Assembly (NCBI GenBank): GCA_963668625.2
Contig: CAXXKA010000008.1
Location: forward strand, 736,001-800,000
Direction: 5' to 3'
DNA: 64,000 bases
Source of the DNA: an uncultured candidate division Zixibacteria bacterium
GTDB taxonomy: Bacteria > Zixibacteria > MSB-5A5 > UBA10806 > 4484-95
Shown: positions 18,610 through 36,657 of the stretch, piece by piece
How the letters are laid out: each line of letters opens with the position of its first letter
How positions within the stretch are numbered: the first letter of the stretch is position 1
The notes under the pieces: generated by a model
What the model saw: the letters and a program-made list of their open reading frames with translations, nothing else
Told to the model about the DNA's origin: nothing
Database searches by the model: none
Made by a program: the position numbers and the translations under genes

Positions 18610-19004
18610 TACTCGCCGAAACTAACAAAGCATCAACCATTTGACAAGTGTTTTTTAAACTTATCTACACGTAAAAATGCTCCCGAATTTCTCAATTTTT
18701 CTAAAATACTTATTATGGATGACTTAAGTCTATTACGCGAGCGATAGAGTTTGACATATTTGTCAGATTTATCGGATCGGGGAATGGTAATATATGAAAA
18801 ATATAGTTGACAGTCCGTTAATTTATTATATATTGGTAATAAGCAAACTTATTAACTAAGGGGTTATGTTGTTGATTTTATAGCTCAGGCTAATGTTTGA
18901 GTAAATCTAGCAACAACCTTGCTGTTTATTAATAAAATATGTGTATATCTTCCCTGCGAGGTAATGATAAGTAATTAACATGCAGTAACTAAGAGGGTGT
19001 GAGC

Positions 19005-20138
19005 ATGAAAATGTCGAAATATATAATCCTGGTGATGGTTTTTTCTATAGTATTTATATTCTCGATATCTCAAGCGAGCGATAGCGTTTATGTATGGTAT
19101 GGTAATGTTGATGGCAGCCCGGTGGAGGCCAATATCGGCACAGACCTGGAAGTAAACGCGTACATTCAAACCGATTCGGATGCTTACGTGGGCAGCGTGC
19201 TTTTAAACCTGGCCGGGGATGGAATCTACTTCGACAGCCTTCAAAGCGCTGAGCTTGGCGAATTTTATGCGCCGTTAACCAGTTGGGATGCCGCTTATTT
19301 TCTGGATGTTTCGCATGAGGTCGATGAGCTTCCCGAGGGGTGGGTGAGCCAGGGATTGTTTGGGCTTGATGATATTATGCCTCCATTCAATTCGCCGCCA
19401 TTGCATTCGGAGGTGCCTTACCAGATAGCTAAATTCGTTATGTCTACCACCGCCGATCCCAATAATGTCGGTAATTTGGCGGCGGCAATCATGCCGGGTA
19501 TAGACTGGCTCAACGGAGTCTCTAATTGCGGTGATACGAACGGAACCCATAATTATGTAGTGGTCGAGTCGGCCAGTCTCCTGCAATTCGCGGGCGGTGG
19601 ATGGATTAGCGGCCTGATCGAGGATGATCATGGTAATCCCGTTGCCGATGTTCAAATAACGAGCGTTCAGACGGAGAGGTCGGTAATGGGCAACAGCGAG
19701 GGTGAATATACCATCGGCCTGGCGCCCGGCGCCTACGATTTGATTTTCTCGGTTGAAGGCTACAGAGATATTGAGCAAACCGGTGTTACGGTATCTTTGA
19801 ATCAAACAACGCCTCTTAATGTGGTGATGGATATTGGCGTTGGCATCGGTGAGGATCGGGCGGTCCCGATTCCAGATCATTTCGAACTCAAGCAGAATTA
19901 TCCGAATCCATTTAACGCTACTACCTCGATTGAATATTTTCTGGCACAACAAACCCATGTCGTGTTGGCTGTTTACGATATACAGGGACGTCTGGTTGAA
20001 ATGCTGGTTGATAAAGAGCAGGAAGCCGGTGTACATAGAGTTAACTGGAATGCCGATATGGTATCCTCGGGAATGTATTTTTATAAGATACAAACCGATC
20101 AAAATAGCCGGGTTCAAAAGATGATGCTTCTAAAATAG
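19005..20138 (+). CDS. Secreted protein: beta-sandwich N-domain + carboxypeptidase-regulatory-like domain + T9SS-like CTD
   Basis: Signal peptide; G.ISG.I.D..GNPV...GEY.I.L.PG.Y; NYPNPFN. Confidence 0.8.
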   Translation: MKMSKYIILVMVFSIVFIFSISQASDSVYVWYGNVDGSPVEANIGTDLEVNAYIQTDSDAYVGSVLLNLAGDGIYFDSLQSAELGEFYAPLTSWDAAYFLDVSHEVDELPEGWVSQGLFGLDDIMPPFNSPPLHSEVPYQIAKFVMSTTADPNNVGNLAAAIMPGIDWLNGVSNCGDTNGTHNYVVVESASLLQFAGGGWISGLIEDDHGNPVADVQITSVQTERSVMGNSEGEYTIGLAPGAYDLIFSVEGYRDIEQTGVTVSLNQTTPLNVVMDIGVGIGEDRAVPIPDHFELKQNYPNPFNATTSIEYFLAQQTHVVLAVYDIQGRLVEMLVDKEQEAGVHRVNWNADMVSSGMYFYKIQTDQNSRVQKMMLLK

Positions 20139-20161
20139 AACGATTATACTGATGATATTTG

Positions 20162-20191
20162 AAAGGCAGGATCTACCAATCCTGCCTTTTT
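20162..20191. terminator. Bidirectional terminator
   Basis: AAAGGCAGGAT-loop-ATCCTGCCTTTTT between convergent genes. Confidence 0.8.
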
Positions 20192-20214
20192 GAATTTCAT
20201 ATGAATCGGATCGT

Positions 20215-20796
20215 CTATCGTTTTCCCAATAACGCCCAACCGGCAGGAAGTACCATCGATGCCATGACAATTTTAAGCATATCTCCGGCGATGAATGGGT
20301 ATAGCCCCAGATTCAAGACCATTGAACTTTCGACATAAATGGATAACCAGAGTAATCCGAACAGATAAATTATTACGTTACCTGCTGTTAAGAATGCAAA
20401 CGTGGCGATAAGGTTGCGGTCATAGCCTCGCTCAGCGCAAGCGCCAACGAAATAGGCGGCAGCTATGAATCCCAATAGATATCCCCCCGTAGGACCGAGC
20501 ATACAGGCAACTCCGGAAAGGCCGCCCGCGAATACCGGGAGACCGGCTGCTCCCTCGGCCAGGTAGGTTAAAATCACCAGCGTTCCTCGTTTGCTGCCCA
20601 TCGTAGCTCCGATTAGAAGCACCGCGAGTGTTTGGAATGTTATTGGTACCGGACTAATTGGCAACATGACTGAGATTTTTGAGGCCAGAGCTAAAATCAG
20701 AGAGCCGCTTAAAACCATCATGAAATCATATAGAACCGCATATCTTTTCGGTACGGGACGGAGCAAATCGATGTAACTTGAATACTGCAAAGTCAT
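20215..20796 (-). CDS. bioY: Biotin transporter BioY
   Basis: PVPITFQT, GLPVFAGG, GPTGGYLLGF, PFIAGD..K. Confidence 0.96.
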   Translation of the reverse strand: MTLQYSSYIDLLRPVPKRYAVLYDFMMVLSGSLILALASKISVMLPISPVPITFQTLAVLLIGATMGSKRGTLVILTYLAEGAAGLPVFAGGLSGVACMLGPTGGYLLGFIAAAYFVGACAERGYDRNLIATFAFLTAGNVIIYLFGLLWLSIYVESSMVLNLGLYPFIAGDMLKIVMASMVLPAGWALLGKR

Positions 20797-21103
20797 TAGT
20801 TTCCTCCAACTACAAAACGTGAAGTTTGTTAGAATGTTTGATCATTTGTCAATATTATGAAAAGATAATTTGAGATGCAAATGATATTTGTTGAATTTAG
20901 CTAATTATTTTAAGCAGATTTTAATGTTTTTATTTAAACCGGAATCTACCGTGTATTGCTGTTCTTTTAATGATTACGAAACCTGCAGCAATCTATTTTT
21001 TCGGTGCATGCAATGGTATTTTTCTTGACATCCAGATAATAAATCCTATATTCCTGATATATGTCACCCCTCCGGGGTAATAACTGGCATCGAGGAGTTC
21101 TTC

Positions 21104-21952
21104 TTGCAGAGTTTACATTCCGAAATAATGCAATGTCTGGCTGATATAGGTCTTTCCGAGCGCGAGGCCCGCGTGTATCTGGCGATGCTCAATAATCGTA
21201 ATGCTACCGCGGCCGAATTGCAAAAGCATTCCGGTGTACCGCTAAGTAAGATCTATGAGGTCATCGATGGACTCGTGAGAGCGGGCTATTGTACCGAAAG
21301 AAAAATCGGCCGTAAGAAGATGTTCGAGGTCTTAAATCCCGACATCGCTCTTGATACATCGTTTAAAGAGCTAAAAAGTCGTTTGGAAAACTCACTCAGT
21401 ATCAAAAAGAAATTATCAAATATTTATTCCTCCTCGAAAAAAATGTCCAATCCCTCCGAGTATATAGAGGTTCTGCGCGGTAACGATAATATTCATCACC
21501 GTTACTGCCAGTTGGTGAGCAATACGCGCAAGGAGCTTCTCGGTTTTAACCGCCGCCCCTACGCTTGTGATACGCAGGATAAATACACGTATCAAAACGA
21601 TGTCGAGCTTGAAACCTCAACGCGCCATGCAGTATCTCGCTGGGTATATGATCTGGAGCTTCCCGGCGAGGAATGGCTTATACCCAATTTGCGGAACCTT
21701 CGCGATAAGGGCCAGGGAATAAGGGTCGCCGAAAAATTACCTTTAAAAATGATGATATTCGATCGCGAGTTATTACTGGTAGCGGATGAGCCTGAGCCAT
21801 TCAGCCAGCCCGGAGATTTAACGATGTCCGTTATCAAGCAGGGGACTATCGTAAACGCATTTTTAGCGATGTTCGAATATTTCTGGGACAGCTCGATTGA
21901 GCTTGATTTATGGGAAAAAATGCAACTACCACTAAGTATATACAGAGAATAG
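21104..21952 (+). CDS. TrmB-family transcriptional regulator
   Basis: GLSEREARVYLA, SGVPLSKIYEV wHTH; LPLKMMIFD effector domain. Confidence 0.9.
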   Translation: MQSLHSEIMQCLADIGLSEREARVYLAMLNNRNATAAELQKHSGVPLSKIYEVIDGLVRAGYCTERKIGRKKMFEVLNPDIALDTSFKELKSRLENSLSIKKKLSNIYSSSKKMSNPSEYIEVLRGNDNIHHRYCQLVSNTRKELLGFNRRPYACDTQDKYTYQNDVELETSTRHAVSRWVYDLELPGEEWLIPNLRNLRDKGQGIRVAEKLPLKMMIFDRELLLVADEPEPFSQPGDLTMSVIKQGTIVNAFLAMFEYFWDSSIELDLWEKMQLPLSIYRE

Positions 21953-22017
21953 GGTGGTAATTAGAATAGCGAATAAAAATAGTGGTCTTAGACGTAAATA
22001 ATTTACAGGAGAAGCAG

Positions 22018-23846
22018 ATAAAGAAATTGTTAATTTTGTTAGTGCTCGCTCTGGTGCCGGTTTTGGTATCAGGCCAGACCTTTATCGAGGAAGGTTTCAA
22101 TACCTGGCCGCCCGAGGGTTGGTCGGCTGATTCTCATCCGAATAACTGGCATGGCGCTGACGGTGATGAGGCCGGCGGTGTTGCACCCGAGGCCGTATTC
22201 GATTGGAGCCCTAAATTTTCCGGCACTACGCATTTCATGTCTCCCGAATTTGACCTGACGGGTGTGATCTAGCTTTATTTCGAGTTTAATCACAAGATCG
22301 ATCATTTTACGGTGGCGCTTATACAGTTGGTGTTGCCACTCGTCACGGCGGCGGTGCATGGAATACTGTCTGGTCGATTTCCAACCCCAGCGGTAATGTC
22401 GGCCCGGCTACTGTTTCCGAACAGATAAGCAATGATGATGTCGGCGCGAGCGATTTCCAGATATGTATATTCTTCTCGGGCAGTTCATATAATGTCGATT
22501 TTTGGTATTTCGATGAGTTCTTTCTCTATTCGCCTTTAGCTCATGATATGAAGCTCAAGAGGCTGGTCATCGATGACCAGTACGAACCGGGTAATCCAAT
22601 GGTACCGGCGGCGCTGGTACAGAATTTCGGTTTGAACGATGAGACATTCGATGTCAACTGCGAGATATTCCTGGGTGATGTAAGCGTATATAATGAAACT
22701 CTGGAGGATATTACTTTCGAATCGGGCGAGCAAGAGACTATCGCGTTCCCGGCTTATAATATTACCGACGCCAACGAGTTGTTCCGGGCTGTATTTACCA
22801 CTATTCTCGATAGTGATATGAATGAGTCCAATGACAGCCGCTGGGAGTATTTCAATACCTATACCACTCCCCGGGATATGGTGTTGCTCGAGATCGGTAC
22901 GGGTACCTGGTGCCAGTACTGTCCCGGCGCGGCCATGGGCGCCGAGGATCTTGTGGGCCATGGACTGAACGTGGCCGTGGTCGAATATCACCAGGGTTCG
23001 ACCGATCCGTTCCAGAATGCCGAGGGCCTGGAGAGGATCGACTATTACGGTATAAGCGGATATCCCACCGCCGTTTTCGGTGGGTTGAAAAAATACGTGG
23101 GCGGCAGTAACACCGAGAGTATGTATTCGGCTTACCTGCCTCTCATTCAGGAAAGAGCGGTTATTAATACCGCATTTACGATGGAATTATTCGGCGCAAA
23201 CGAAGGTTACGATTATAATATCATGACACGGGTTACGAAAATGGCCACGATACCATATGAGAATATGGTTGTTCATGTTGCCCTGACCGAGTCGGGTATC
23301 GCCTATAACTGGCAGGGCCAGACTCACCTCGAGTGGGTTGAGCGCGATATGGTCGAAAATGCTGATGGCGAACCGATCAATTTCGGCTCTGGTGATGTTC
23401 AGCAGGTTGAATTCGATTTTAACCTCGATCCCGATTATGATTTATCGGAGTGCGAGCTCACCGCCTGGGTGCAGAACCTGGACAATAAAGAGGTGCTGCA
23501 GTCGACTAAAGTCATGCTTACGGATTTAACACCTGTTGCCATCGATGATGACATGGTGGTTTTGCCGAGTCGCACCAGGTTGGGCGCCAACTATCCCAAC
23601 CCGTTTAATCCATCAACAATGATTGAATTCTCGATCGAATCTCCCGGTGATGTAATCCTGGAGGTATACAATATCATGGGCCAGAAAGTTAATACAGTCG
23701 TTAACTCGAGGCTCGAAGCCGGCAACCATCAGGCGTTATGGAACGGTACGGATGAGTCCGGCGCCGGTGTTGCCTCCGGTACATATTTTTATAAGCTGAC
23801 TACGGATGATTTCAGTCAGACTAAGAAAATGGTCTTGATGAAGTAG
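22018..23846 (+). pseudogene. Disrupted secreted Omp28/thioredoxin-like (WCQYC) protein with T9SS-like CTD
   Basis: ATA in place of start after AGGAG; in-frame TAG 22270-22272; 1-nt deletion near 22309; downstream frame continues into the 22548 ORF. Confidence 0.8.
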
Positions 23847-23921
23847 TCAGGCAGAGGGGACAAAGCAGGGGGAGAGTGCCAGCAGTGTCTCTCCCCTTCA
23901 GAAATAAGAGAAGGATTAAAA

Positions 23922-25259
23922 ATGACAGCAATAGCCAAGATCGCAGCACCGACATTATTAATCTTAATATTAGCGGCCGGAACGGCTTTCCCTGATACTT
24001 ACCTGATCCAACCTGACGGCAGCGGGGATTTTTCCGATCTAACCACAGCTATGGGAAACGCCGTTGATGGTGACACTATTATGTTGGCCGACGGTCTTTA
24101 CACCGGCCGCGGTAATCGTGATATAAATTATGATGGTAAAGAGGTGGTAGTTTGCTCGCAAAGCGGGAATCCCGCGAATTGCGTTATAGATATCGAAGGG
24201 GAGTTCAATGATACGGCCGAGCGAGGTTTTATTTTCAATAACGATGAAACCGAAGCCAGCGTACTTCGCGATATAAAAATCATTCACGGTAACGCCGATG
24301 CTCCCTGCCCCGAGTGCGAAGGCGGAGCGGTGTATGTGCACGACGCCTCGCCTACCATGGAAAATTTGATTCTAGAGGATAACTATGCCTTAAACGGGGC
24401 CGGCATCATGGTAAACGGCGGTTCACCGACGATCAAAAACTGTGTGTTCATTAATAATGATACCTTCGACGGCGGTGGTTTCATGTGCCTCTCCGGCGAC
24501 CATCCTATTTTAGAGGGCTGCGTGTTTTATAATAATACCGCCACGATGCGGGGGGCGGCTATCTCAGGGCAGGGCGAATGTGTTATCGAGGTGGTAAACT
24601 GTACTATCGCCCATAACGGCTCAACCGTGGGCAGCGCCATATCCTCGTGGGAGAATGACTATATCATAGAGAATTCCATTATCGCCTATAACGGCGATAG
24701 CCTGGCGGTCTGGGCAACGGGTGATCCTGAGATTACAATCAGCTATACCGATATTTACGGCAACACCGGCGGTGACTGGGTCGGTCCGATAGCCGGACAG
24801 GGTACGTTAAACGGTAATAAAAACGAGGCCCCGATATTCGTTGATTACGAAAATCGTGATTACCATCTTACGGTAAATTCTCCCTGTATCGATGGTGGCA
24901 ATCCCGATTCGCCTTATGATCCCGATAACACCGTTGCCGATATGGGTGCATACTATTATTACCAGATCGTCTCTATCGATAATACGGAGTTGCTCCCGAA
25001 TCGAACCGGCTTGCTTGCCAATTACCCTAATCCGTTCAATGCCAATACTGTCATAGCGTTCGAATTGGCCTCGCGGGGAGATGTGCAGCTTGATATTTAC
25101 GATATCGCAGGCCGTAAAGTGACCACGGCCGCACAAGGCATGTTCGAGGCGGGAAAATACCAGGTGGACTGGTATGCTGATGTTGTTTCGGGCGTTTATT
25201 TTTCCGTATTGCGTACCGATAGCGGCGTGTATACGAATAAGATGGTTTTGCTGAAATAG
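23922..25259 (+). CDS. Secreted right-handed beta-helix protein with T9SS-like CTD
   Basis: GDTIMLADG.Y, GGA/FxxN repeats, SPCIDGG.P...DMGAY; NYPNPFN. Confidence 0.85.
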   Translation: MTAIAKIAAPTLLILILAAGTAFPDTYLIQPDGSGDFSDLTTAMGNAVDGDTIMLADGLYTGRGNRDINYDGKEVVVCSQSGNPANCVIDIEGEFNDTAERGFIFNNDETEASVLRDIKIIHGNADAPCPECEGGAVYVHDASPTMENLILEDNYALNGAGIMVNGGSPTIKNCVFINNDTFDGGGFMCLSGDHPILEGCVFYNNTATMRGAAISGQGECVIEVVNCTIAHNGSTVGSAISSWENDYIIENSIIAYNGDSLAVWATGDPEITISYTDIYGNTGGDWVGPIAGQGTLNGNKNEAPIFVDYENRDYHLTVNSPCIDGGNPDSPYDPDNTVADMGAYYYYQIVSIDNTELLPNRTGLLANYPNPFNANTVIAFELASRGDVQLDIYDIAGRKVTTAAQGMFEAGKYQVDWYADVVSGVYFSVLRTDSGVYTNKMVLLK

Positions 25260-25296
25260 TAAAATTATTCGAATAGTCTGTTAATGAATTTTTATT

Positions 25297-25329
25297 AATC
25301 GCCGGATTATCCTTCTCCGGCGATTTTTT
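25297..25329 (+). terminator. Intrinsic terminator
   Basis: AATCGCCGGA-loop-TCCGGCGATT-TTTT. Confidence 0.8.
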
Positions 25330-25633
25330 ATTGCATATGCCTGTTCTCGGTTGGTTTGTTGAATGCCCATCGGAAAGAGATTATTGAAGCTTAACTGTTT
25401 TTTAACTGATGTCGGCCTTATACCGAGCGCTTTTAATGTAGCTACATTTGGCGATATCATTTTGTTGACATTGGCGGGCAATGTGTTATATTAATGCTGC
25501 TAATCTGGCTGAGGGTTACAGGCAAACTTCCGGAGTTGTTGAAAATTCCCATATCTATGTGGAAGGAGGATATTCATCCGGCATGTAATTCTAATGTATC
25601 ATATTTTCATGATAAGCAAGGAATGGAGTTGAT

Positions 25634-27970
25634 ATGAGATCCAGATTTACCAGGTTATTGTTGGTACTGTCTGCGGTATTGTTGTTCGGGGGAGCTTTAC
25701 AGGCTCAGAATGTGCTTGTGTGGGATAACGATAACGGATCGGATTATAGCGATCCCGATAACGGCGTGACTCGCAGTTGTGAGTATGGTATCGTGCAAGC
25801 TCTTAGCGCGAATAATATTAACTATACGACTTTGTCTTACCTGCCATCCTATTTGGATAATTACGATATCATATTCGTTGTGCTCGGTGTCTACTGCCGT
25901 AGCTGAGGGGAAACCCCTCCCGGATCAGTTGGATCCGAACAACAAGATGAATTAGTCGAGTTCATGAATGATGGCGGCGCTCTATACGTAGAGGGCTCGG
26001 ATGTAGGCTGTAGCCACTATACCACCGAATTTTTCGAATATCTCGGGGCCGACTATATCAGGCAGGGTGATGGCTATAATACCATAAATGAAATAGAAGG
26101 CGTTGAGGGTACTTTTACTGCTCCTGATCTTTTTTCGTTTCCGGACGGAGACCCTGACTACAAAGTAGATGAACTCGGAGCAGGAGAAGGTACCGGTATT
26201 CTTCGATGTCAGGAGGATATAGTCAGGACAGTGCTCTATGAGGGAGCAAATTATCGAGCTATCACCTCCTCTGTAACTTTCGGTGTTCTGGAAAACAGGC
26301 AGGAAAGTTCTACGAGAGCTTTGCTCATGGAGCGTTACCTGAATTTCCTCAACGGTAACGATGGCAGCGAATTCTGGTGTTCGCATGGCCAAATCGATTT
26401 TGGCGTGCAGTATATCAGCTATGATTCGGTAATCAATATAACGATGCAGAATTTCGGCCAGGGTGGTTTGTATATAAGCGATATAGGTATCACCGGCGAG
26501 CAATTCTCGATTGATTGTGAGACGAGTTACTCGCTTGCGAGCGGCCAACGGATCGAGTTGCCCGTAAGATTTTACAGTGATGAAATCGGATACTATATGG
26601 GGGCAATTACTTTGACCACCAATGATCCGGATGAGACATCCGTTACGATACCTGTTGAAGCCGAATGTTTCGGGTCGCCTGTAGTTGGGCTCGAACCGAC
26701 GGCGTTTAATGTAGATATTTTAGCGGACCAGATTACCCAGAGGATAATGACCATAGCCAACAGCGGTGAAAGTCGTCTCAGTTTTAATATCCAGATAGTT
26801 GATTCGCACGAGTTGGTCGGTACTACTGATCACCGGACGAATGATGAGTGCGATATCGAGGCAGTGTCGCTGGCGAAGGGCGAATATGATTACCGTCAGG
26901 GGCCACCGGTTGTTTGCGGTTCCGGCGGGCCTGATGATTTCGGCTATAAATGGATAGACAGTGATGAAGCCGGGGGACCGGTATATCAATGGTTCGATAT
27001 TTCAGAGATAGGACAAAATACCGGCTTGGAGGGCGATGACGAAATGGTGACCATACCTCTGCCGTTTGGTTTCCATTATTATGGCAATGAATACGATGAG
27101 GTAACTATCAGCACGAACGGCTATCTCACGTTCGGCAATGACGGTGAACATTATGGCAATCACAATATCCCATACTCTGAGCACCCGAATAATATAATAT
27201 GTCCGTTCTGGGATGATTTAGAACAGGAATCAGGCTCGAACTATAGCCACTACGATCAGACTAACCATAGGTTCATAATTCAATACCAGGATTGGGGATT
27301 TTACTCCGGTGGCGGTTCGCTCGATTTTCAGGTACATCTCCTCGAAAATGGTGTGATATTTTTCTACTACAGGAACTTGATCGGAAGCCTGACCTCCGCG
27401 ACAATCGGAATCGAAAACTCAACCGGCGCCGATGGCCTTCAGGTAGCCTATAATTCCAATTACCTTCACGATGAAATGGCTATTCAGTTTAACGCCGGGC
27501 CGATCTGGATCACTATGAACGAGAGTATTGGGATCGTACCGGTGGATTCCACTCATGATATAATTTTCACTTTCGATGCTACGAGCGTTGATGAGGGTGT
27601 TTATACGGCCGACATTATATTCGGATGTAATGACCCTGAAACTCCTCGAATAGTCGTGCCGGTTACCATGAACGTGAATTTAACCGGTATCGGGGATGAG
27701 TCGCTGCCATACGTTACGGAGCTGACCGGAAACTATCCGAACCCGTTCAACAATTCCACCGTAATCAGTTACTCGATCGATAAACGTACTCATGTCAGCC
27801 TTGACATATATAATTTGCTGGGACAGAAAATTGTTACGCTCGTTGATGATATCCGGGATGCCGGTGAATATCGGGAGATATGGCAGGCGGATGTTTCCAC
27901 CGGTGTATATTTCTACAGGTTAAACGCCGGTGATTATGTCTCGCAGCGAAAGATGATCTTATTGAAATAA
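25634..27970 (+). CDS. Probable secreted selenoprotein (CxxU, Sec91; 778 aa): alpha/beta N-domain + Ig-like (choice-of-anchor D) + GGPD domain + CTD
   Basis: Track ORFs 25634-25906 and 25964-27970 are in the same frame, separated only by TGA 25904-25906: VYCRS*GETPPGSVG; SECIS-like hairpin follows. Confidence 0.8.
25921..25937 (+). promoter_or_regulatory. Candidate bacterial SECIS element
   Basis: CGGATC-AGTTG-GATCCG, core stem starting 16 nt after TGA. Confidence 0.65.
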
Positions 27971-27981
27971 ATCGTGTCCGG

Positions 27982-28007
27982 CCTGGTCGTGTCAGATCAC
28001 GACCAGG
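27982..28007 (+). terminator. Hairpin between the paralogs (weak terminator or stabiliser)
   Basis: CCTGGTCGTG-loop-CACGACCAGG, short T-run a few nt later. Confidence 0.5.
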
Positions 28008-28181
28008 TCGATTTTAGGATTTGAAATTTCTGCGCTGACAGTTATATTGTTGATATAATCGGAAATAGCGCACAGGTTAATATCTTAGCAATTGGCAACA
28101 TAAATTCATATCGGGATAAAAAGGAGGTGGAAACGCAATCCCCGTATCGAAGTTTTGGTCAGGGTAAATCCTTTTTAGGAA

Positions 28182-30473
28182 GTGAGTAGTATAATGTTTA
28201 AAAAAACTTTAGGTCTTTACCTGATAGTAACCGTGATTTTTCTGATCGCTGATACACTCCAGGCACAAAATATACTTATTTGGGATAACGATAATTCATC
28301 CCATTATTATGATTCGGAAGAGGGAGAATCGAGAAACTGTGAGTATGGAATCCAAAGGGCGCTGACCGACAACCAGGTTAGCTATGTAACTCGCAGCAAC
28401 CTGCCCCTGGATATATCGGATTATGATATCGTATTCGTCGTCCTGGGCGTCTACTGTGTCGGGTGAGGAATCACTCCACCGGGAACCGTGGGTTCCTCAG
28501 AACAAACGATTTTAATGGATTATATGAATGACGGCGGGACGGTTTATTGCGAGGGCTCGGATGTCGCTTTTTCACATCAAAGCACGGACTTTTTAGATTA
28601 TTTCGGAGTAGAGTTTATAGATCGTGGAGAGGCGAACGCAATCGATATGATCCGTGGCGTCGATGGCACGTTCACCGCCTCGGACCGATTCGATTTTCCC
28701 GACGGTGATGCCGATTACCTTATCGATGAGCTGGCAATGGTTAGCGGAACAGGTTTTCTAGAATGTCAGAATAATATTAGCCGCGCGGTTTTTTATGATG
28801 AGGGCGGTTATCGAACGATTATATCCTCAGTAACTTTAGGCGCTTTATTCGATGGCGAAGATACCAATACACGGGCCGTATTGATGGAGCGGTACTTGAG
28901 CTTTCTGACCGGCGATGAAAATCCCAATCTCTGGCGCTCACATGACACGATAGATTTCGGCACTAATTACGCGGGTTATGAATCGACTGTAGATTTTAAA
29001 ATTAAGAATATCGGATTGAACGGCTTGAATATCAGCAACGTTAACATTACCGGCCAGTGCTTTACGTTCGATGGCGATACGGATTACATGCTCGATGTCG
29101 GTGAGCGCGTTACCTTACCGGTGACTTTTTTCAGCGAGACCGCGGGAAATTACGATGGCGCGATAACGTTTACCACCAACGATCCTGACGAGGAAAATAT
29201 TTCGGTAGAACTGACCGCGGAATGTATTTCCGCCCCGGAAATCGAGATATCCGATGATGAATTATATGTTGAGCTAAACCGCGGACAGGTAGTTGATCGG
29301 ACATTTTCGATTACGAATATAGGCTTGAACGATCTGGAGTTCAGAATCGAAACTCTTGAAACGAGCGAACCTGGTCTGGTAGGCGATTACCGAAATGATG
29401 ACGGCGAGCCGGTTGTTTGCGGCTCGGGAGGGCCGGATACTTACGGCTATATATGGGTCGACAGCGATGAGCCGGCCGGGCCGGAATTCGAATGGCTGGA
29501 TATCTCCGGAATTGGCGAGGATATCGGGTTACAGGGATTCGATAGTGGCGAATTCATCGATTTGCCTTTTAATTTTGGTTTTTACGGCAACACATACGAT
29601 CGGATAATGGTCAGCACGAATGGCTATCTGACTTTCGATACCGACCCTACTGAATATATGAACCACAGGATACCCGATTCGCAGGAGCCTAACAATCTTA
29701 TCTGTCCGTTCTGGGATGATCTCTACCCCCGGGATGGCAGGGTTTACTACTATCATGATTCAGACCGTCAGAGGGTGATTATACAGTACGATAAATGGGA
29801 GTATTACTCGGGGTTCGGTGATTTCACATTGCAGGTGCATCTTCTGGAAAACGGTGTAATTTATTTCTATTACGAGAAAATCAACGGCTCAACCACCTCA
29901 TCCACTGTCGGTATCGAGAGCGCTGAGGGTAACGATGGTCTCGAGATCGTATATAACAGCTCGTATCTCAGGGATAGTCTGGCCATAAGAATTAATGCCG
30001 GTCCGAAGTGGCTTGGGTTGGATGAACTAGCAGGGGCCTTAACTCCTGGTTCGAGCATGAATTTAGTTTTCACTTTCGACGCTCGGAGTATCGGGGAGGG
30101 TACTTACACGGCTGATATGTATATCTATAATAACGATCCCGCCAATCCCGAGATTACGGTGCCGGTGACCATGCTGGTAAATATCGTTGGCGCAAAGGAC
30201 GAAACGCTGCCGTATGTGACGGAGCTCAAAGGCAACTATCCCAACCCGTTTAACGGCGCCACCTCGATAAGTTACTCGCTCGGTAAGCGTACTTATGTAA
30301 CGTTGGATATATTCAATGTGCTGGGAAGGAAAGTGACCAGGCTGGTCGATGAGGTTAAGGCAGCCGGTAATCATAGTATTGTATGGCGGGCGGATGTTTC
30401 CAGCGGGGTGTATTTCTACAGGCTAACCGCCGGCGATTATGTTTCGCAAGAGAAAATGATTTTGTTGAAGTAG
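28182..30473 (+). CDS. Probable secreted selenoprotein, paralog 2 (CxxU)
   Basis: Track ORFs 28182-28466 and 28488-30473 in frame across TGA 28464-28466: VYCVG*GITPPGTVG; alternative start ATG 28194 puts the TGA at residue 91. Confidence 0.8.
28482..28496 (+). promoter_or_regulatory. Candidate bacterial SECIS element
   Basis: GGAACC-GTG-GGTTCC starting 16 nt after TGA. Confidence 0.65.
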
Positions 30474-30494
30474 AGTATTGAGATTAATGACTCG

Positions 30495-30527
30495 ACCGGG
30501 GTGTCGTATGGGCATCCCGGTTTTTTT
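30495..30527 (+). terminator. Intrinsic terminator
   Basis: ACCGGGGTGTC-loop-GGCATCCCGGT followed by T-tract. Confidence 0.8.
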
Positions 30528-31022: not shown

Positions 31023-32261
31023 TTGTATAAGAAGTACGCTTCTATTTTTTTAGCTATAATTTTCATCCTGGGAAGTATCGCTTATGCCCAGGATGCAGGT
31101 GATACGAATCCAGCAGATCAATCCCCGGACGGCATGCCCCCATATCCCAAACCCGACCCGCCACGTAACCTTATAGTCAAAGATAACCCGAGTGACGGTG
31201 GCGGCAGGATTTTAGTCGAGTGGGAGTTATCCGGTGATGATGGAGCGGGGAAAGAGAATGTCATTGGTTACGAGATATACCGCGCCGTAGCCGGTGATAC
31301 TAATTTCGTCTCGATTGGTATGGCCTCCGCCGGCGCCGATCTCTATATCGATTCTGGTGTCGAGGATGATACGAAATATATATATAAAGTTGCCGCTACC
31401 GATGGTGTGTGGCGTTCGTTCACCGCGGCTACCAACCCGGTACACTCCTCCCAGCAATGGTTTAATTTGAATCTCAAATACCTGTTTTTGATCGGGCTTT
31501 TGATTTGCGGCTCGGTCATATATTTCATATTCCGGGCACAGGGCGGCAGAACCTTATTTATCAGGAAAATAGCCGGTCTTGAGGCTATTGATGATGCCGT
31601 TGGGCGCGCCACCGAGATGGGGCGTCCGGTGCTTTTCATCCCCGGTATCCGCGATATGGACGATGTGCAAACTATCGCCGGTATCACTATTCTGGGCAGG
31701 GTTGCCCGCACGATTGCAGAATACGATATCAAAATAAATATGCCGGTTTCGCGTTCGATCGTTATGACCACGGCACGCGAGACTATCAAAGCGGCTTACG
31801 CGCAGGAGGGACGAATCGATGCTTATTCCGATGAGTTCGTTTACTATCTCACCGATGAACAGTTTGGCTATGTTGCAGCAGTAGATGGTATCATGGTGCG
31901 TGATAAGCCGGCCACATGTTTCTATATGGGGTCGTTTTTCGCTGAAAGCTTGATTTTCGCCGAGACGGGCAACTCGATCGGCGCTATACAGATTGCCGGT
32001 ACGGCTATGCCGGCGCAGTTGCCGTTTTTCGTAGCCGCTTGCGACTATACCTTAATAGGCGAGGAGCTATTCGCCGCCTCGGCCTATCTATCTGGTGAGC
32101 CTCGTCAATTAGGCAGTCTTAAAGGCCAGGATGTTGGCAAGGTTATCGCCATGATAGCTATTATTATTGGGGTACTGGCTGCAACTTTGCATTCGGCTAC
32201 CGGGCTGGAGTTTTTCGGTGATTTTCATCAAATTGTGAAAGATTTGTTTACCACCAACTGA
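31023..32261 (+). CDS. Module 1 subunit A: FN3 + DUF6754-like membrane protein
   Basis: Signal peptide, FN3, TM, AIDDAVGRATEMGRP, FFAESLI, LIGEELFAASAYLS. Confidence 0.85.
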   Translation: MYKKYASIFLAIIFILGSIAYAQDAGDTNPADQSPDGMPPYPKPDPPRNLIVKDNPSDGGGRILVEWELSGDDGAGKENVIGYEIYRAVAGDTNFVSIGMASAGADLYIDSGVEDDTKYIYKVAATDGVWRSFTAATNPVHSSQQWFNLNLKYLFLIGLLICGSVIYFIFRAQGGRTLFIRKIAGLEAIDDAVGRATEMGRPVLFIPGIRDMDDVQTIAGITILGRVARTIAEYDIKINMPVSRSIVMTTARETIKAAYAQEGRIDAYSDEFVYYLTDEQFGYVAAVDGIMVRDKPATCFYMGSFFAESLIFAETGNSIGAIQIAGTAMPAQLPFFVAACDYTLIGEELFAASAYLSGEPRQLGSLKGQDVGKVIAMIAIIIGVLAATLHSATGLEFFGDFHQIVKDLFTTN

Positions 32262-35400: not shown

Positions 35401-36657
35401 ATGAGAAAAATTAATGGGTTATTCGTAACCTTAATTTTCTTAATGTCATTGGGAGGAATAGCGCTCGCCCAGGGTGATATACCCGTTGAGGGTGAGATGG
35501 CCGTGGAAGCTGCGGATGCGCAAAGTCCACCGGCCCCTCAACCGCCAACCAATGTGATCATTACGGACAGACCGAATGATGCCGGCCATGGGTTGATGAT
35601 TGTATGGGACCTTTCGCCCGATGACGGCGCCGGAATGAATAGCGTACAAATGTACGAAATATTCCGTGCCGGTTCCCCTGACGGCGAATTCATATCCCGC
35701 GGCATTATTCCCGCCGGCGATAATGAGTTCGAGGATCAGGATGACCAGGAGAGCGGCGGCAGGGGGCCAAATCCCAATTATATGCCGTCTAACAGTACCT
35801 GGTATTACAAAATAACGGCGGTTTCAGAGGATGGTATTCACTCCGAGGGAACCCCGGTCGTTTCCGGTACTACCAAAGCTAACATTTTCCACTGGGGCAA
35901 ATTGCCGATATTGTTCGGCGTATTGATATTCGGTGGATTCTTGCTGGCTTTTATCTCTCAGGCCAAAAGTGGTAAAGAATTGTATGTCCGACCCTTATCC
36001 GGTATCAATGCCGTTGATGACGCTATCGGTCGTGCCACCGAGATGGGCAAACCGATCCTGTTTATTTTAGGATTGGGAACCGCCGGCGATATCGCGACTA
36101 TCGCGGGATTTACGATCCTGGCACGCGTGGCCAGGAGAACCGCCGAATACCAGACCAAGGTGCTGGTACCGGTGCAGGATCCTGTCGTGCTGGCCGTTGC
36201 CCAGGAAACCGTGAGAACGGCTTATCTGGAGGCCGGTCGTCCCGATCAGTACAATCCCGATAACGTATTTTACGTGACTGCTTTGCAGTTCCCATATGTA
36301 GCCGCGGTAAACGGTATCATGCTTCGTGAAAAACCGGCCACCAATTTCTATTGTGGCAAGTTTTACGCCGAATCGCTGATTCTGGCGGAGACCGGCAATA
36401 TCGCCGGTTCGATTCAGATATCCGGTACCGACGAGATCGGCCAGTTGCCGTTTTTCGTAGCGGCCACCGACTATACTTTGATCGGTGAGGAGCTTTACGC
36501 CGCCTCGGCATACCTGTCGCAGGAGCCGGTTCAGCTCGGCACATTGAAAGCCCAGGACTATACTAAGGCCGTGGTTATGGTCATAATTCTGATCGGCACG
36601 ATTTTGATAACCGCCGGAGCGACTTTCTTTTTAAATATGGTAACTGTAAACCTGTAA
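35401..36657 (+). CDS. Module 2 subunit A (FN3 + DUF6754-like)
   Basis: Paralog of 31023: AVDDAIGRATEMGKP, LIGEELYAASAYLS. Confidence 0.85.
   Translation: MRKINGLFVTLIFLMSLGGIALAQGDIPVEGEMAVEAADAQSPPAPQPPTNVIITDRPNDAGHGLMIVWDLSPDDGAGMNSVQMYEIFRAGSPDGEFISRGIIPAGDNEFEDQDDQESGGRGPNPNYMPSNSTWYYKITAVSEDGIHSEGTPVVSGTTKANIFHWGKLPILFGVLIFGGFLLAFISQAKSGKELYVRPLSGINAVDDAIGRATEMGKPILFILGLGTAGDIATIAGFTILARVARRTAEYQTKVLVPVQDPVVLAVAQETVRTAYLEAGRPDQYNPDNVFYVTALQFPYVAAVNGIMLREKPATNFYCGKFYAESLILAETGNIAGSIQISGTDEIGQLPFFVAATDYTLIGEELYAASAYLSQEPVQLGTLKAQDYTKAVVMVIILIGTILITAGATFFLNMVTVNL

Follow-up and report, generated by a model that had tools for sequence, protein, structure and literature searches.

A tandem pair of predicted C-x-x-U selenoproteins with type IX secretion sorting domains in an uncultured Zixibacteria genome

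Two genes interrupted by a single TGA

The locus described here raises the question of whether an in-frame TGA, found once in each of two adjacent genes, ends a short protein or lies within a long one. The genes, designated A and B, are located in a 64,000-nucleotide stretch of DNA from an uncultured candidate division Zixibacteria bacterium (assembly GCA_963668625.2, contig CAXXKA010000008.1, positions 736,001 to 800,000), and this whole stretch is referred to as the window. Under translation table 11 both genes appear as a pair of open reading frames (ORFs) on the plus strand, 25634-25906 (90 aa) and 25964-27970 (668 aa) for gene A, and 28182-28466 (94 aa) and 28488-30473 (661 aa) for gene B, with the two ORFs of each pair sharing one frame. 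Reading through the TGA results in uninterrupted frames of 778 aa for gene A and 763 aa for gene B, each containing one TGA (25904-25906, residue U91; 28464-28466, residue U95 counted from 28182), and apart from this codon neither gene contains further stops or frameshifts. The peptide around the TGA is VVLGVYCRS-TGA-GETPPGSVGSEQ in gene A and VVLGVYCVG-TGA-GITPPGTVGSSE in gene B, locally G-E-T-P-P-G and G-I-T-P-P-G after the TGA, and the motif common to both is LG-x-Y-C-x-x-TGA-G-x-x-P-P-G. A previous interpretation made from the DNA letters alone (the sequence-only reading) had described these split ORF pairs, with a shared frame and a single TGA at the homologous position, and its description was confirmed, the quoted peptides being exact. 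On sequence grounds gene B may start at an ATG at 28194 (MFKK...; 759 aa) instead of the GTG at 28182.

25634..27970, + strand: gene A read-through coding sequence of a putative secreted multidomain selenoprotein (778 aa, stop TAA, single TGA)
25904..25906, + strand: gene A putative selenocysteine codon TGA, residue 91, with the Cys at -3 encoded by 25895-25897
28182..30473, + strand: gene B read-through coding sequence (763 aa from GTG, stop TAG)
28464..28466, + strand: gene B putative selenocysteine codon TGA, residue 95 counted from 28182, in the read-through frame

The comparisons below make it highly probable that both genes are intact and that their UGA is read as selenocysteine (Sec) by means of a miniature Sec insertion sequence (SECIS) element. 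The conserved TGA, the Cys homologues, a covarying hairpin and the Sec machinery of the genome are all in favour of the C-x-x-U selenoprotein that the sequence-only reading had put forward. A fuller explanation, in which Sec decoding is combined with export by the type IX secretion system (T9SS) and with an extracellular C-x-x-U redox centre, is also considered probable, if a little less firmly.

The paralogues A and B have 51% identity across their full length (396/778), which indicates an old duplication and a shared TGA that is not a recently copied defect, as had been argued earlier from their divergence against a shared nonsense mutation. A six-frame search of 61 related genomes (source included) with the N-terminal domain gave matches at E <= 0.001 in 10 genomes. 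Six matches were strong: the two window genes, two from same-genus genomes and two from a different family of that class. Every one of the six had a single TGA, placed at the U codon of C-x-x-U-G. A further seven weak matches (E 3.7e-7 to 9.1e-4) aligned solely downstream of the motif. Scanning of species-representative genomes resulted in 37 confirmed loci from 81 pattern matches, with TGA in 34, TGC in one (L045, WCTGCG), one locus that was distant and loop-less (L071) and one ending before the loop (L072). Scanning of metagenomes resulted in 28 confirmed loci from 83 pattern matches, all with TGA (28/28), and contributed 20 new sequences. The patterns used for scanning came from Sec forms, at positions outside the motif, and may still favour close kin; on this footing a total of 56 distinct TGA DNA sequences (window included) stood against one Cys codon, with 37-57% protein identity to gene A. 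In every gene read through, this was the sole in-frame TGA, other TGAs being located upstream of the start codon. That homologues keep either TGA or Cys at this position was thus borne out, by the 56 DNA sequences on the one hand and by one DNA locus and six C-x-x-C database proteins on the other. That Sec forms outnumber Cys forms so extremely suggests a need for selenium chemistry, not mere tolerance of it.

Pseudogenes, or a TGA that is an assembly error, would explain the in-frame stop taken alone. This is vanishingly improbable, given that the TGA is found at the same codon in 56 distinct sequences from independent assemblies, only 37-57% identical, and that no other stop or frameshift is present in genes A and B.

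The hosts of the 37 genome loci were metagenome-assembled genomes (MAGs) labelled Zixibacteriota and Cloacimonadota, plus a few labelled Armatimonadota or Ignavibacteria. Among the latter few (L042-L044 and L038), Armatimonadota-labelled MAGs contain gene copies that hardly differ from those in Cloacimonadota MAGs, and of the same-genus relatives of the source genome one is labelled Ignavibacteria and another Zixibacteriota. The Armatimonadota and Ignavibacteria labels are likely to be labelling or binning inconsistencies and not the result of gene transfer. One metagenome homologue (L103) has an extra in-frame TAA or TAG about five codons before the TGA (...SCG-stop-YCVGUG...) together with the weakest hairpin, and may be a pseudogene or a sequencing error.

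An exhaustive HMMER search with a profile of the two paralogues against 1.84 billion representatives returned 808 proteins at E <= 0.001, with 257 of them at E <= 1e-10. When the 150 best database representatives were re-aligned together with the window's own long piece, 79 domain hits began at protein residue 5 or earlier, just past the U column, nine short proteins ended in C-x-x directly ahead of it, 67 domain hits crossed it and seven fitted no class. All of the short N-terminal database fragments (9/9) therefore end exactly at the TGA position, in agreement with the sequence-only reading. Database entries of the family are split or truncated 'hypothetical proteins' of 90 aa and approximately 250-665 aa.

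Among the hits spanning the U column, six proteins carried C-x-x-C at the motif. The public names of these Cys forms are 'hypothetical protein', 'large repetitive protein' and 'T9SS type A sorting domain-containing protein', and the ESM Atlas look-alikes of one of them, P0005 (residues 24-245), were unnamed 'hypothetical protein' clusters (score 0.93) that gave no lead. Two proteins with W at the Sec position are considered further below. The remaining spanning hits were distant members such as LGIYPNNH or LGIYSNNH, which lack the Cys pair and have a loop shortened by about four residues. On this ground the C-x-x-U-G-x-x-P-P-G loop is, as judged from the alignment, an insertion specific to this subfamily, within a wider domain that has yet to be characterised. 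This wider domain also turns up in large secreted proteins with S8 or C25 peptidase, dockerin, CARDB or MAM domains.

A TGA acting as a true stop would yield a 90-aa secreted peptide and a separate protein of approximately 665 aa, which is the split that standard gene callers report. This reading is extremely improbable. Amino-acid conservation continues across the TGA, and Cys-form homologues such as P0005 (778 aa) run on as a single uninterrupted protein of matching domain layout. The second ORF would also begin within a helix of one confidently folded alpha/beta domain, and it has no signal peptide, yet carries a T9SS sorting domain at its end.

In a quick maximum-likelihood tree of 48 rows, with root and direction given no formal test, the CxxU/CxxC proteins formed one clade against six loop-less short outgroup proteins (SH-aLRT 99). 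Paralogues A and B from the window were sisters (89), and the Cys form P0006 was placed inside a Sec clade (95). The topology fits what would be expected of a Sec ancestor with occasional replacement.

A hairpin after the TGA and the decoding machinery

A SECIS-like hairpin is predicted shortly downstream of the TGA in both genes.

25921..25937, + strand: gene A SECIS-like hairpin CGGAUC-AGUUG-GAUCCG, starting 15 nt past the UGA (fold and covariation)
28482..28496, + strand: gene B SECIS-like hairpin GGAACC-GUG-GGUUCC, starting 15 nt past the UGA

Conservation of the hairpin was assessed in an alignment of 35 sequences (A4), gap-free after the TGA, in which the TGA occupies columns 13-15. The stem consists of five core pairs (columns 31-35 with 41-45), is 5-7 bp in length and starts 15-16 nt past the UGA. 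It encloses a loop N-G-U-N-N with an invariant U and a G conserved in at least 90%, the loop G and U being located 22-23 nt past the UGA. In a 7-pair version, 84.1% of cells paired compared to 65.3% when shuffled, and double changes were observed in all pairs (7/7). Covariation was 0.569 compared to 0.215 shuffled (0/500 as high) and at most 0.157 with the partner slid by 1-3 columns. Individual pairs illustrate the exchange, pair 33-43 being AU in 13, UA in 13 and CG in 8 sequences, and pair 34-42 GC in 18, UA in 9 and AU in 7. RNAalifold independently predicted the same 5 bp. In the 20 metagenome sequences, which were held out, 88% of cells paired, with a covariation of 0.439 compared to 0.168 shuffled (0/500) and at most 0.166 slid.

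The stem encodes the peptide G-x-V-x'-S, in which x/x' is S/G, T/G, V/Y, E/L, A/S or I/H with the codons staying complementary, and little other than selection on the RNA would readily account for such chemically unrelated residue pairs with complementary codons. Bacterial SECIS (bSECIS) elements are stem-loops shortly past the UGA with a conserved loop G (and U), the loop G lying approximately 16-37 nt from the UGA. The predicted hairpin is likewise a stem-loop with a conserved loop G and U. Under the proposed mechanism this short hairpin (5-7 bp stem, N-G-U-N-N loop), contained within the codons for P-P-G-x-V-x-x, would direct Sec decoding, and the UGA would be decoded as Sec by the genome's own SelB and tRNA-Sec.

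The source genome (10 contigs, 95.9% complete) encodes the Sec machinery on which the sequence-only reading depended, with selD, selA, selB and tRNA-Sec all found. The selD gene (353.8 bits) has an in-frame TGA of its own in ...SCAGUAAK... and is adjoined on contig C1 by selA (467.8 bits) and selB (347.9 bits), all three protein matches exceeding curated cut-offs. The three genes are arranged head to tail at C1:154251-158454, in the order selD, selA, selB (loci L002, L004 and L005). The tRNA-Sec scored 68 bits (gathering score 47) and was called as tRNA-SeC with anticodon UCA by ARAGORN. Downstream of the UGA in this selD there is also a stem, longer than those of genes A and B, capped by a GUU loop and at a greater distance from the codon. 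On contig C8 (C8:1138152-1139072, L001) another full-length match to SelD (405 bits), which has no TGA, lies inside a 739-aa open frame and looks like a SelD fused to another domain.

TGA terminates 13 of the 45 long non-overlapping ORFs in the window, in several cases with the next gene starting at once, and is otherwise an ordinary stop of the standard code. Of the 34 genomes with the loci, 29 gave a selA match, 28 of those above cut-off, and among the TGA-form genomes other than the source selA was present in 28/32.

Fold, export and function of the motif-bearing domain

The only parts of these proteins with Pfam or NCBIfam matches are an Ig-like domain, a NIDO-like stretch and a T9SS type-A sorting domain, and residues 1-250 have none in either gene. 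The assignments, including those made from structure prediction, are as follows.

25634..25705, + strand: gene A putative signal peptide (MRSRFTRLLLVLSAVLLFGGALQA / QN), judged by eye from a positive N-terminus, a hydrophobic core and an A-x-A-like end
25706..26368, + strand: gene A N-terminal domain modelled as GATase1-like (ThuA/GIFT-like), with the C-x-x-U loop (AlphaFold2 and Foldseek)
26390..26656, + strand: gene A Ig-like domain (HYDIN/VesB-like; choice-of-anchor D), PF22544 at 5e-8, NF012200 below cut-off
27098..27268, + strand: gene A NIDO-like stretch, PF06119 at 23.4 bits, under the 25-bit cut-off (gene B 32.8 bits)
27734..27958, + strand: gene A T9SS type-A C-terminal sorting domain, PF18962 at 38.3 bits (cut-off 27) and TIGR04183 at 42.3 (cut-off 23)
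28266..28925, + strand: gene B N-terminal domain modelled as GATase1-like, with the C-x-x-U loop, 54% identical to the gene A domain
28938..29210, + strand: gene B Ig-like domain (HYDIN/VesB-like, DUF1573, choice-of-anchor D; Pfam, NCBIfam)
30237..30461, + strand: gene B T9SS type-A C-terminal sorting domain (Pfam and NCBIfam, above cut-off)

A sequence search of the PDB with the domain profile gave nothing below E 0.93. AlphaFold2 modelling of residues 25-249 with a 70-sequence alignment (gene B domain included) resulted in a model with a pLDDT of 95.4 and a pTM of 0.93, for which a single-sequence AlphaFold2 model of the domain (pLDDT 33.2) was set aside. Foldseek comparison of the model to the PDB returned class-I glutamine amidotransferase (GATase)-like folds at E 1.5e-7 to approximately 3e-5 (TMq 0.5-0.63). 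The neighbours were STM3548, domain B of GH42 beta-galactosidase, the N-terminal (GIFT) domain of IFT52, ThuA-like proteins and true GATases. On this model the N-terminal domain has a GATase1-like (ThuA/GIFT-like) alpha/beta fold, and only a fold-level likeness to GATases is claimed because an hhalign comparison with a GATase domain encoded in the same genome (PF00117 match, contig C10) gave a probability of 0.3%. Membership of the GATases by sequence was rejected on that value; no Pfam GATase, ThuA-like, GIFT or GH42-trimerisation model matched the domain. A GATase Cys-His-Glu triad was also rejected, the broader family having Y-P/S-N-N-H with no Cys at the loop, as was a thioredoxin fold, with no thioredoxin-type Pfam or NCBIfam hit and none among the Foldseek hits listed. 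The alpha/beta redox domain of the sequence-only reading is therefore retained in part, being alpha/beta in the AlphaFold2 model but GATase1-like/ThuA-like and not thioredoxin-type, with a redox function that we infer.

In the model, the C-x-x-U motif follows the central strand (55-59), forms a one-turn helix (DSSP H65-67) and precedes helix 77-88. This would place the loop in the nucleophile-elbow region of amidotransferases, and C and U would be close enough to bond. Residues D9, S12, C64, U/C67, P72, Q80, E96, D155 and R174 are invariant in 35 close members, and only E96 and D155 are invariant over the broader 70-sequence alignment. An upstream Cys (in CEYGI) had also been reported as kept in both paralogues; it is present in both as C25 of the domain but is not fixed, the close homologues having Cys in 27/35, Thr in 6 and Ser in 2.

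Both proteins begin with a typical putative signal peptide (judged by eye), and the T9SS sorting domain (TIGR04183 / PF18962) is above cut-off in both genes. Together with the Ig-like domain (PF22544) this recovers the Ig-like and T9SS-like C-terminal domains put forward in the sequence-only reading. The genome encodes T9SS machinery, including SprA (570.8 bits) and PorU (681.8 bits), with PorV-like matches below cut-off adjoining PorU, and dozens of its other ORFs carry a sorting domain. The combination of a putative signal peptide and a type-A sorting domain suggests export via the general secretory translocon and then the T9SS. The product would first cross the inner membrane through that translocon, with cleavage of its signal peptide, and the T9SS would then deliver it to the cell surface or the medium; delivery of the mature protein to the surface by this route is likely from the domains present. 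Outside the cell, the C-x-x-U-G-x-x-P-P-G loop, inserted after the central beta-strand of the GATase1-like domain, would hold the Sec. The U lies three positions after the C in a short turn of helix, and the two would form a reversible selenenylsulfide, which would serve as an extracellular thiol/disulfide-type redox centre. Selenium incorporation, export and this C-x-x-U chemistry are what we infer for both proteins.

The C-x-x-U module was found in at least three cargo architectures, the long form of genes A and B, a form of approximately 600-700 aa with an N-terminal jelly-roll/CARDB region, and a short form of approximately 335-370 aa consisting of the domain and the C-terminal sorting domain. 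Comparison of the neighbourhoods of the 37 genome loci revealed no conserved partner, with neighbour families common to at most five loci, and no operon-based function was therefore drawn.

In the window, genes A and B are the last of five consecutive plus-strand T9SS cargo genes (18999-30473), preceded by a CarboxypepD_reg, an Omp28-like and a beta-helix gene. This cluster is interrupted by a BioY gene on the minus strand and a TrmB-type regulator on the plus strand. Downstream are two DUF6754 paralogues (31023-32261, E 1.7e-122; 35401-36657, E 6.7e-115), which may represent a duplicated operon of unknown function; the small ORFs that follow the first of them had no Pfam hits among those scanned.

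Several observations weigh against Sec decoding and a redox centre. The hairpin is short (5-7 bp), and its stem is weaker or register-shifted in L054, L056, L064, L090, L091 and L103. An Rfam scan of 25600-30500 found no SECIS or other Rfam family matching it, returning four chance-level hits (E 1.4-5.8) far below gathering scores. No selA match was found in 4/32 TGA-bearing genomes, which are MAGs of unknown completeness. The one Cys-form genome also has selA, so that loss of the Sec trait does not account for the Cys replacement. One 703-aa protein (P0008), nested in another Sec clade (97), has neither C nor U (LGLYSFVEQNDPPG) and keeps P-P-G and the rest of the domain, which indicates that the remainder of the domain can persist without the motif. 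Two close database homologues that span the site (P0009, P0127) have W at the Sec position. The fold is not among the classic redox folds, and no reductant partner is kept beside the gene in the 37 loci compared. A search for sequencing runs listed two DNA-type contig runs from one study and none of RNA.

The two W-containing proteins would speak for read-through without Sec, in which a near-cognate tRNA inserts Trp, Cys or Arg, or TGA is a sense codon. Their C-x-x-W may, however, be encoded by TGG, or by TGA called under a TGA=Trp code. Read-through of this kind is very improbable: TGA ends the 13 window ORFs mentioned above, is present once per gene and always at the Cys-aligned codon, and is accompanied by a covarying hairpin with a G-U loop and by the full Sec machinery. 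The pseudogene, two-gene and alternative-code readings were all rejected in favour of Sec decoding.

What the motif does is a more even question, and redox catalysis by C-x-x-U, as opposed to metal or metalloid binding, is given about an equal chance of being right or wrong. The proteins could be real selenoproteins in which C-x-x-U is a non-catalytic soft metal/metalloid site at the cell surface (Hg, Cu, Zn, As, Se/S species), an alternative that we regard as possible but rather unlikely. CxxU/CxxC are metal ligands in several selenoprotein families, with mercuric transport, metal-binding and CopZ-like selenoprotein entries in Table 1 of a 2026 review (PMC13188914). The fold, which is not thioredoxin-type, and the lack of a redox partner conserved next door point the same way, and the invariant D9, E96 and D155 together with a near-invariant H104 could add ligands. 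On the other side, no metal-resistance or metal-transport genes are located beside genes A and B in the window, and the data do not separate binding from catalysis.

Relation to known selenoproteins and significance

The families of CxxU/UxxC selenoproteins include thiol:disulfide interchange, DsbA-like, DsbG-like and AhpD-like proteins (PMC13188914, Table 1). Genes A and B resemble these bacterial selenoproteins in having one UGA at a Cys-aligned position, a G-U-loop hairpin shortly downstream and selABCD in the genome, and some of those families are also exported. However, the modelled fold of genes A and B is GATase1-like and not thioredoxin- or AhpD-like, their Sec domain has no Pfam or NCBIfam model, and the Sec:Cys ratio is 56:1 (DNA loci). 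An outer-membrane beta-barrel receptor selenoprotein is similar in being a cell-envelope protein with a C-x-x-U motif outside the cytoplasm, whereas genes A and B encode T9SS cargo with an unrelated domain and no NCBIfam hit. A GxUxG selenoprotein GATase likewise has Sec in a class-I glutamine amidotransferase-type fold, at what we take to be the nucleophile position. Unlike this true GATase, the products of genes A and B have a C-x-x-U-G-x-x-P-P loop, are predicted to be secreted and have no GATase sequence relation (hhalign 0.3%). The best structural neighbours of the N-terminal domain are the ThuA-like, GIFT (IFT52/GldG) and GH42-trimerisation GATase1-like domains. Such domains tend to be accessory or non-catalytic parts of proteins that are secreted or act on carbohydrates, and we know of no CxxC or CxxU loop in any of them.

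The Ig domain of gene B gave a weak hit to OS_HP2 / DUF1573 (NF041425, PF07610; 30.3 bits against a cut-off of 100) at 28947-29219, residues 256-346, a range that contains no TGA. The Sec of that family lies in a UGC motif (PMC13188914, Table 1). Membership was rejected on the score, far below cut-off, and on the lack of Sec in the Ig domain, the two having in common an Ig-like fold only.

NCBIfam release 20 contains no model for the Sec domain, and the entries consulted in Table 1 of PMC13188914, a review with more than 110 families, include no T9SS cargo and no GATase1-like CxxU family. The earlier statement that no classical selenoprotein family is matched is upheld within NCBIfam, Pfam and those entries. 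Literature searches on selenoproteins or selenocysteine together with Cloacimonadota, Zixibacteria or T9SS found no such family, although supplementary tables or BSepDB could list one. Because the searches on selenoproteins and T9SS gave nothing relevant, this appears to be the first T9SS cargo selenoprotein. As judged by sequence comparison, genes A and B represent a new, Sec-dominated family of putative secreted selenoproteins decoded in the standard bacterial way, and its unusual traits are predicted T9SS export, a non-redox scaffold and the dominance of Sec.

Such a family adds to the prokaryotic selenoproteome. Annotation pipelines split or truncate genes of this kind and thereby hide a widespread, putatively selenium-dependent protein of the cell surface in two phyla that are uncultured yet abundant in the environment. 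The family also provides a clean natural data set on a minimal 5-7 bp SECIS within a coding sequence and on SelB recognition outside Proteobacteria and Firmicutes. It includes a case in which SECIS pairing constrains the protein sequence, as the x and x' of G-x-V-x'-S covary only at the RNA level.

Tentatively, and with more doubt than conviction, these genes could belong to a large class, so far overlooked, of selenoenzymes that anaerobic Cloacimonadota and Zixibacteriota send out of the cell by the T9SS, a class in which a selenenylsulfide loop is grafted onto a GATase1-like scaffold and selenium is nearly obligatory. If this is true, the loop would have been grafted at the strand-to-helix site where true amidotransferases keep their nucleophile, and the Sec:Cys ratio of approximately 56:1 (DNA loci) would point to a chemistry that Cys does poorly outside the cell. 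Candidates for this chemistry would be disulfide or polysulfide reduction, or chalcophile metal capture, in sulfidic sediments and digesters.

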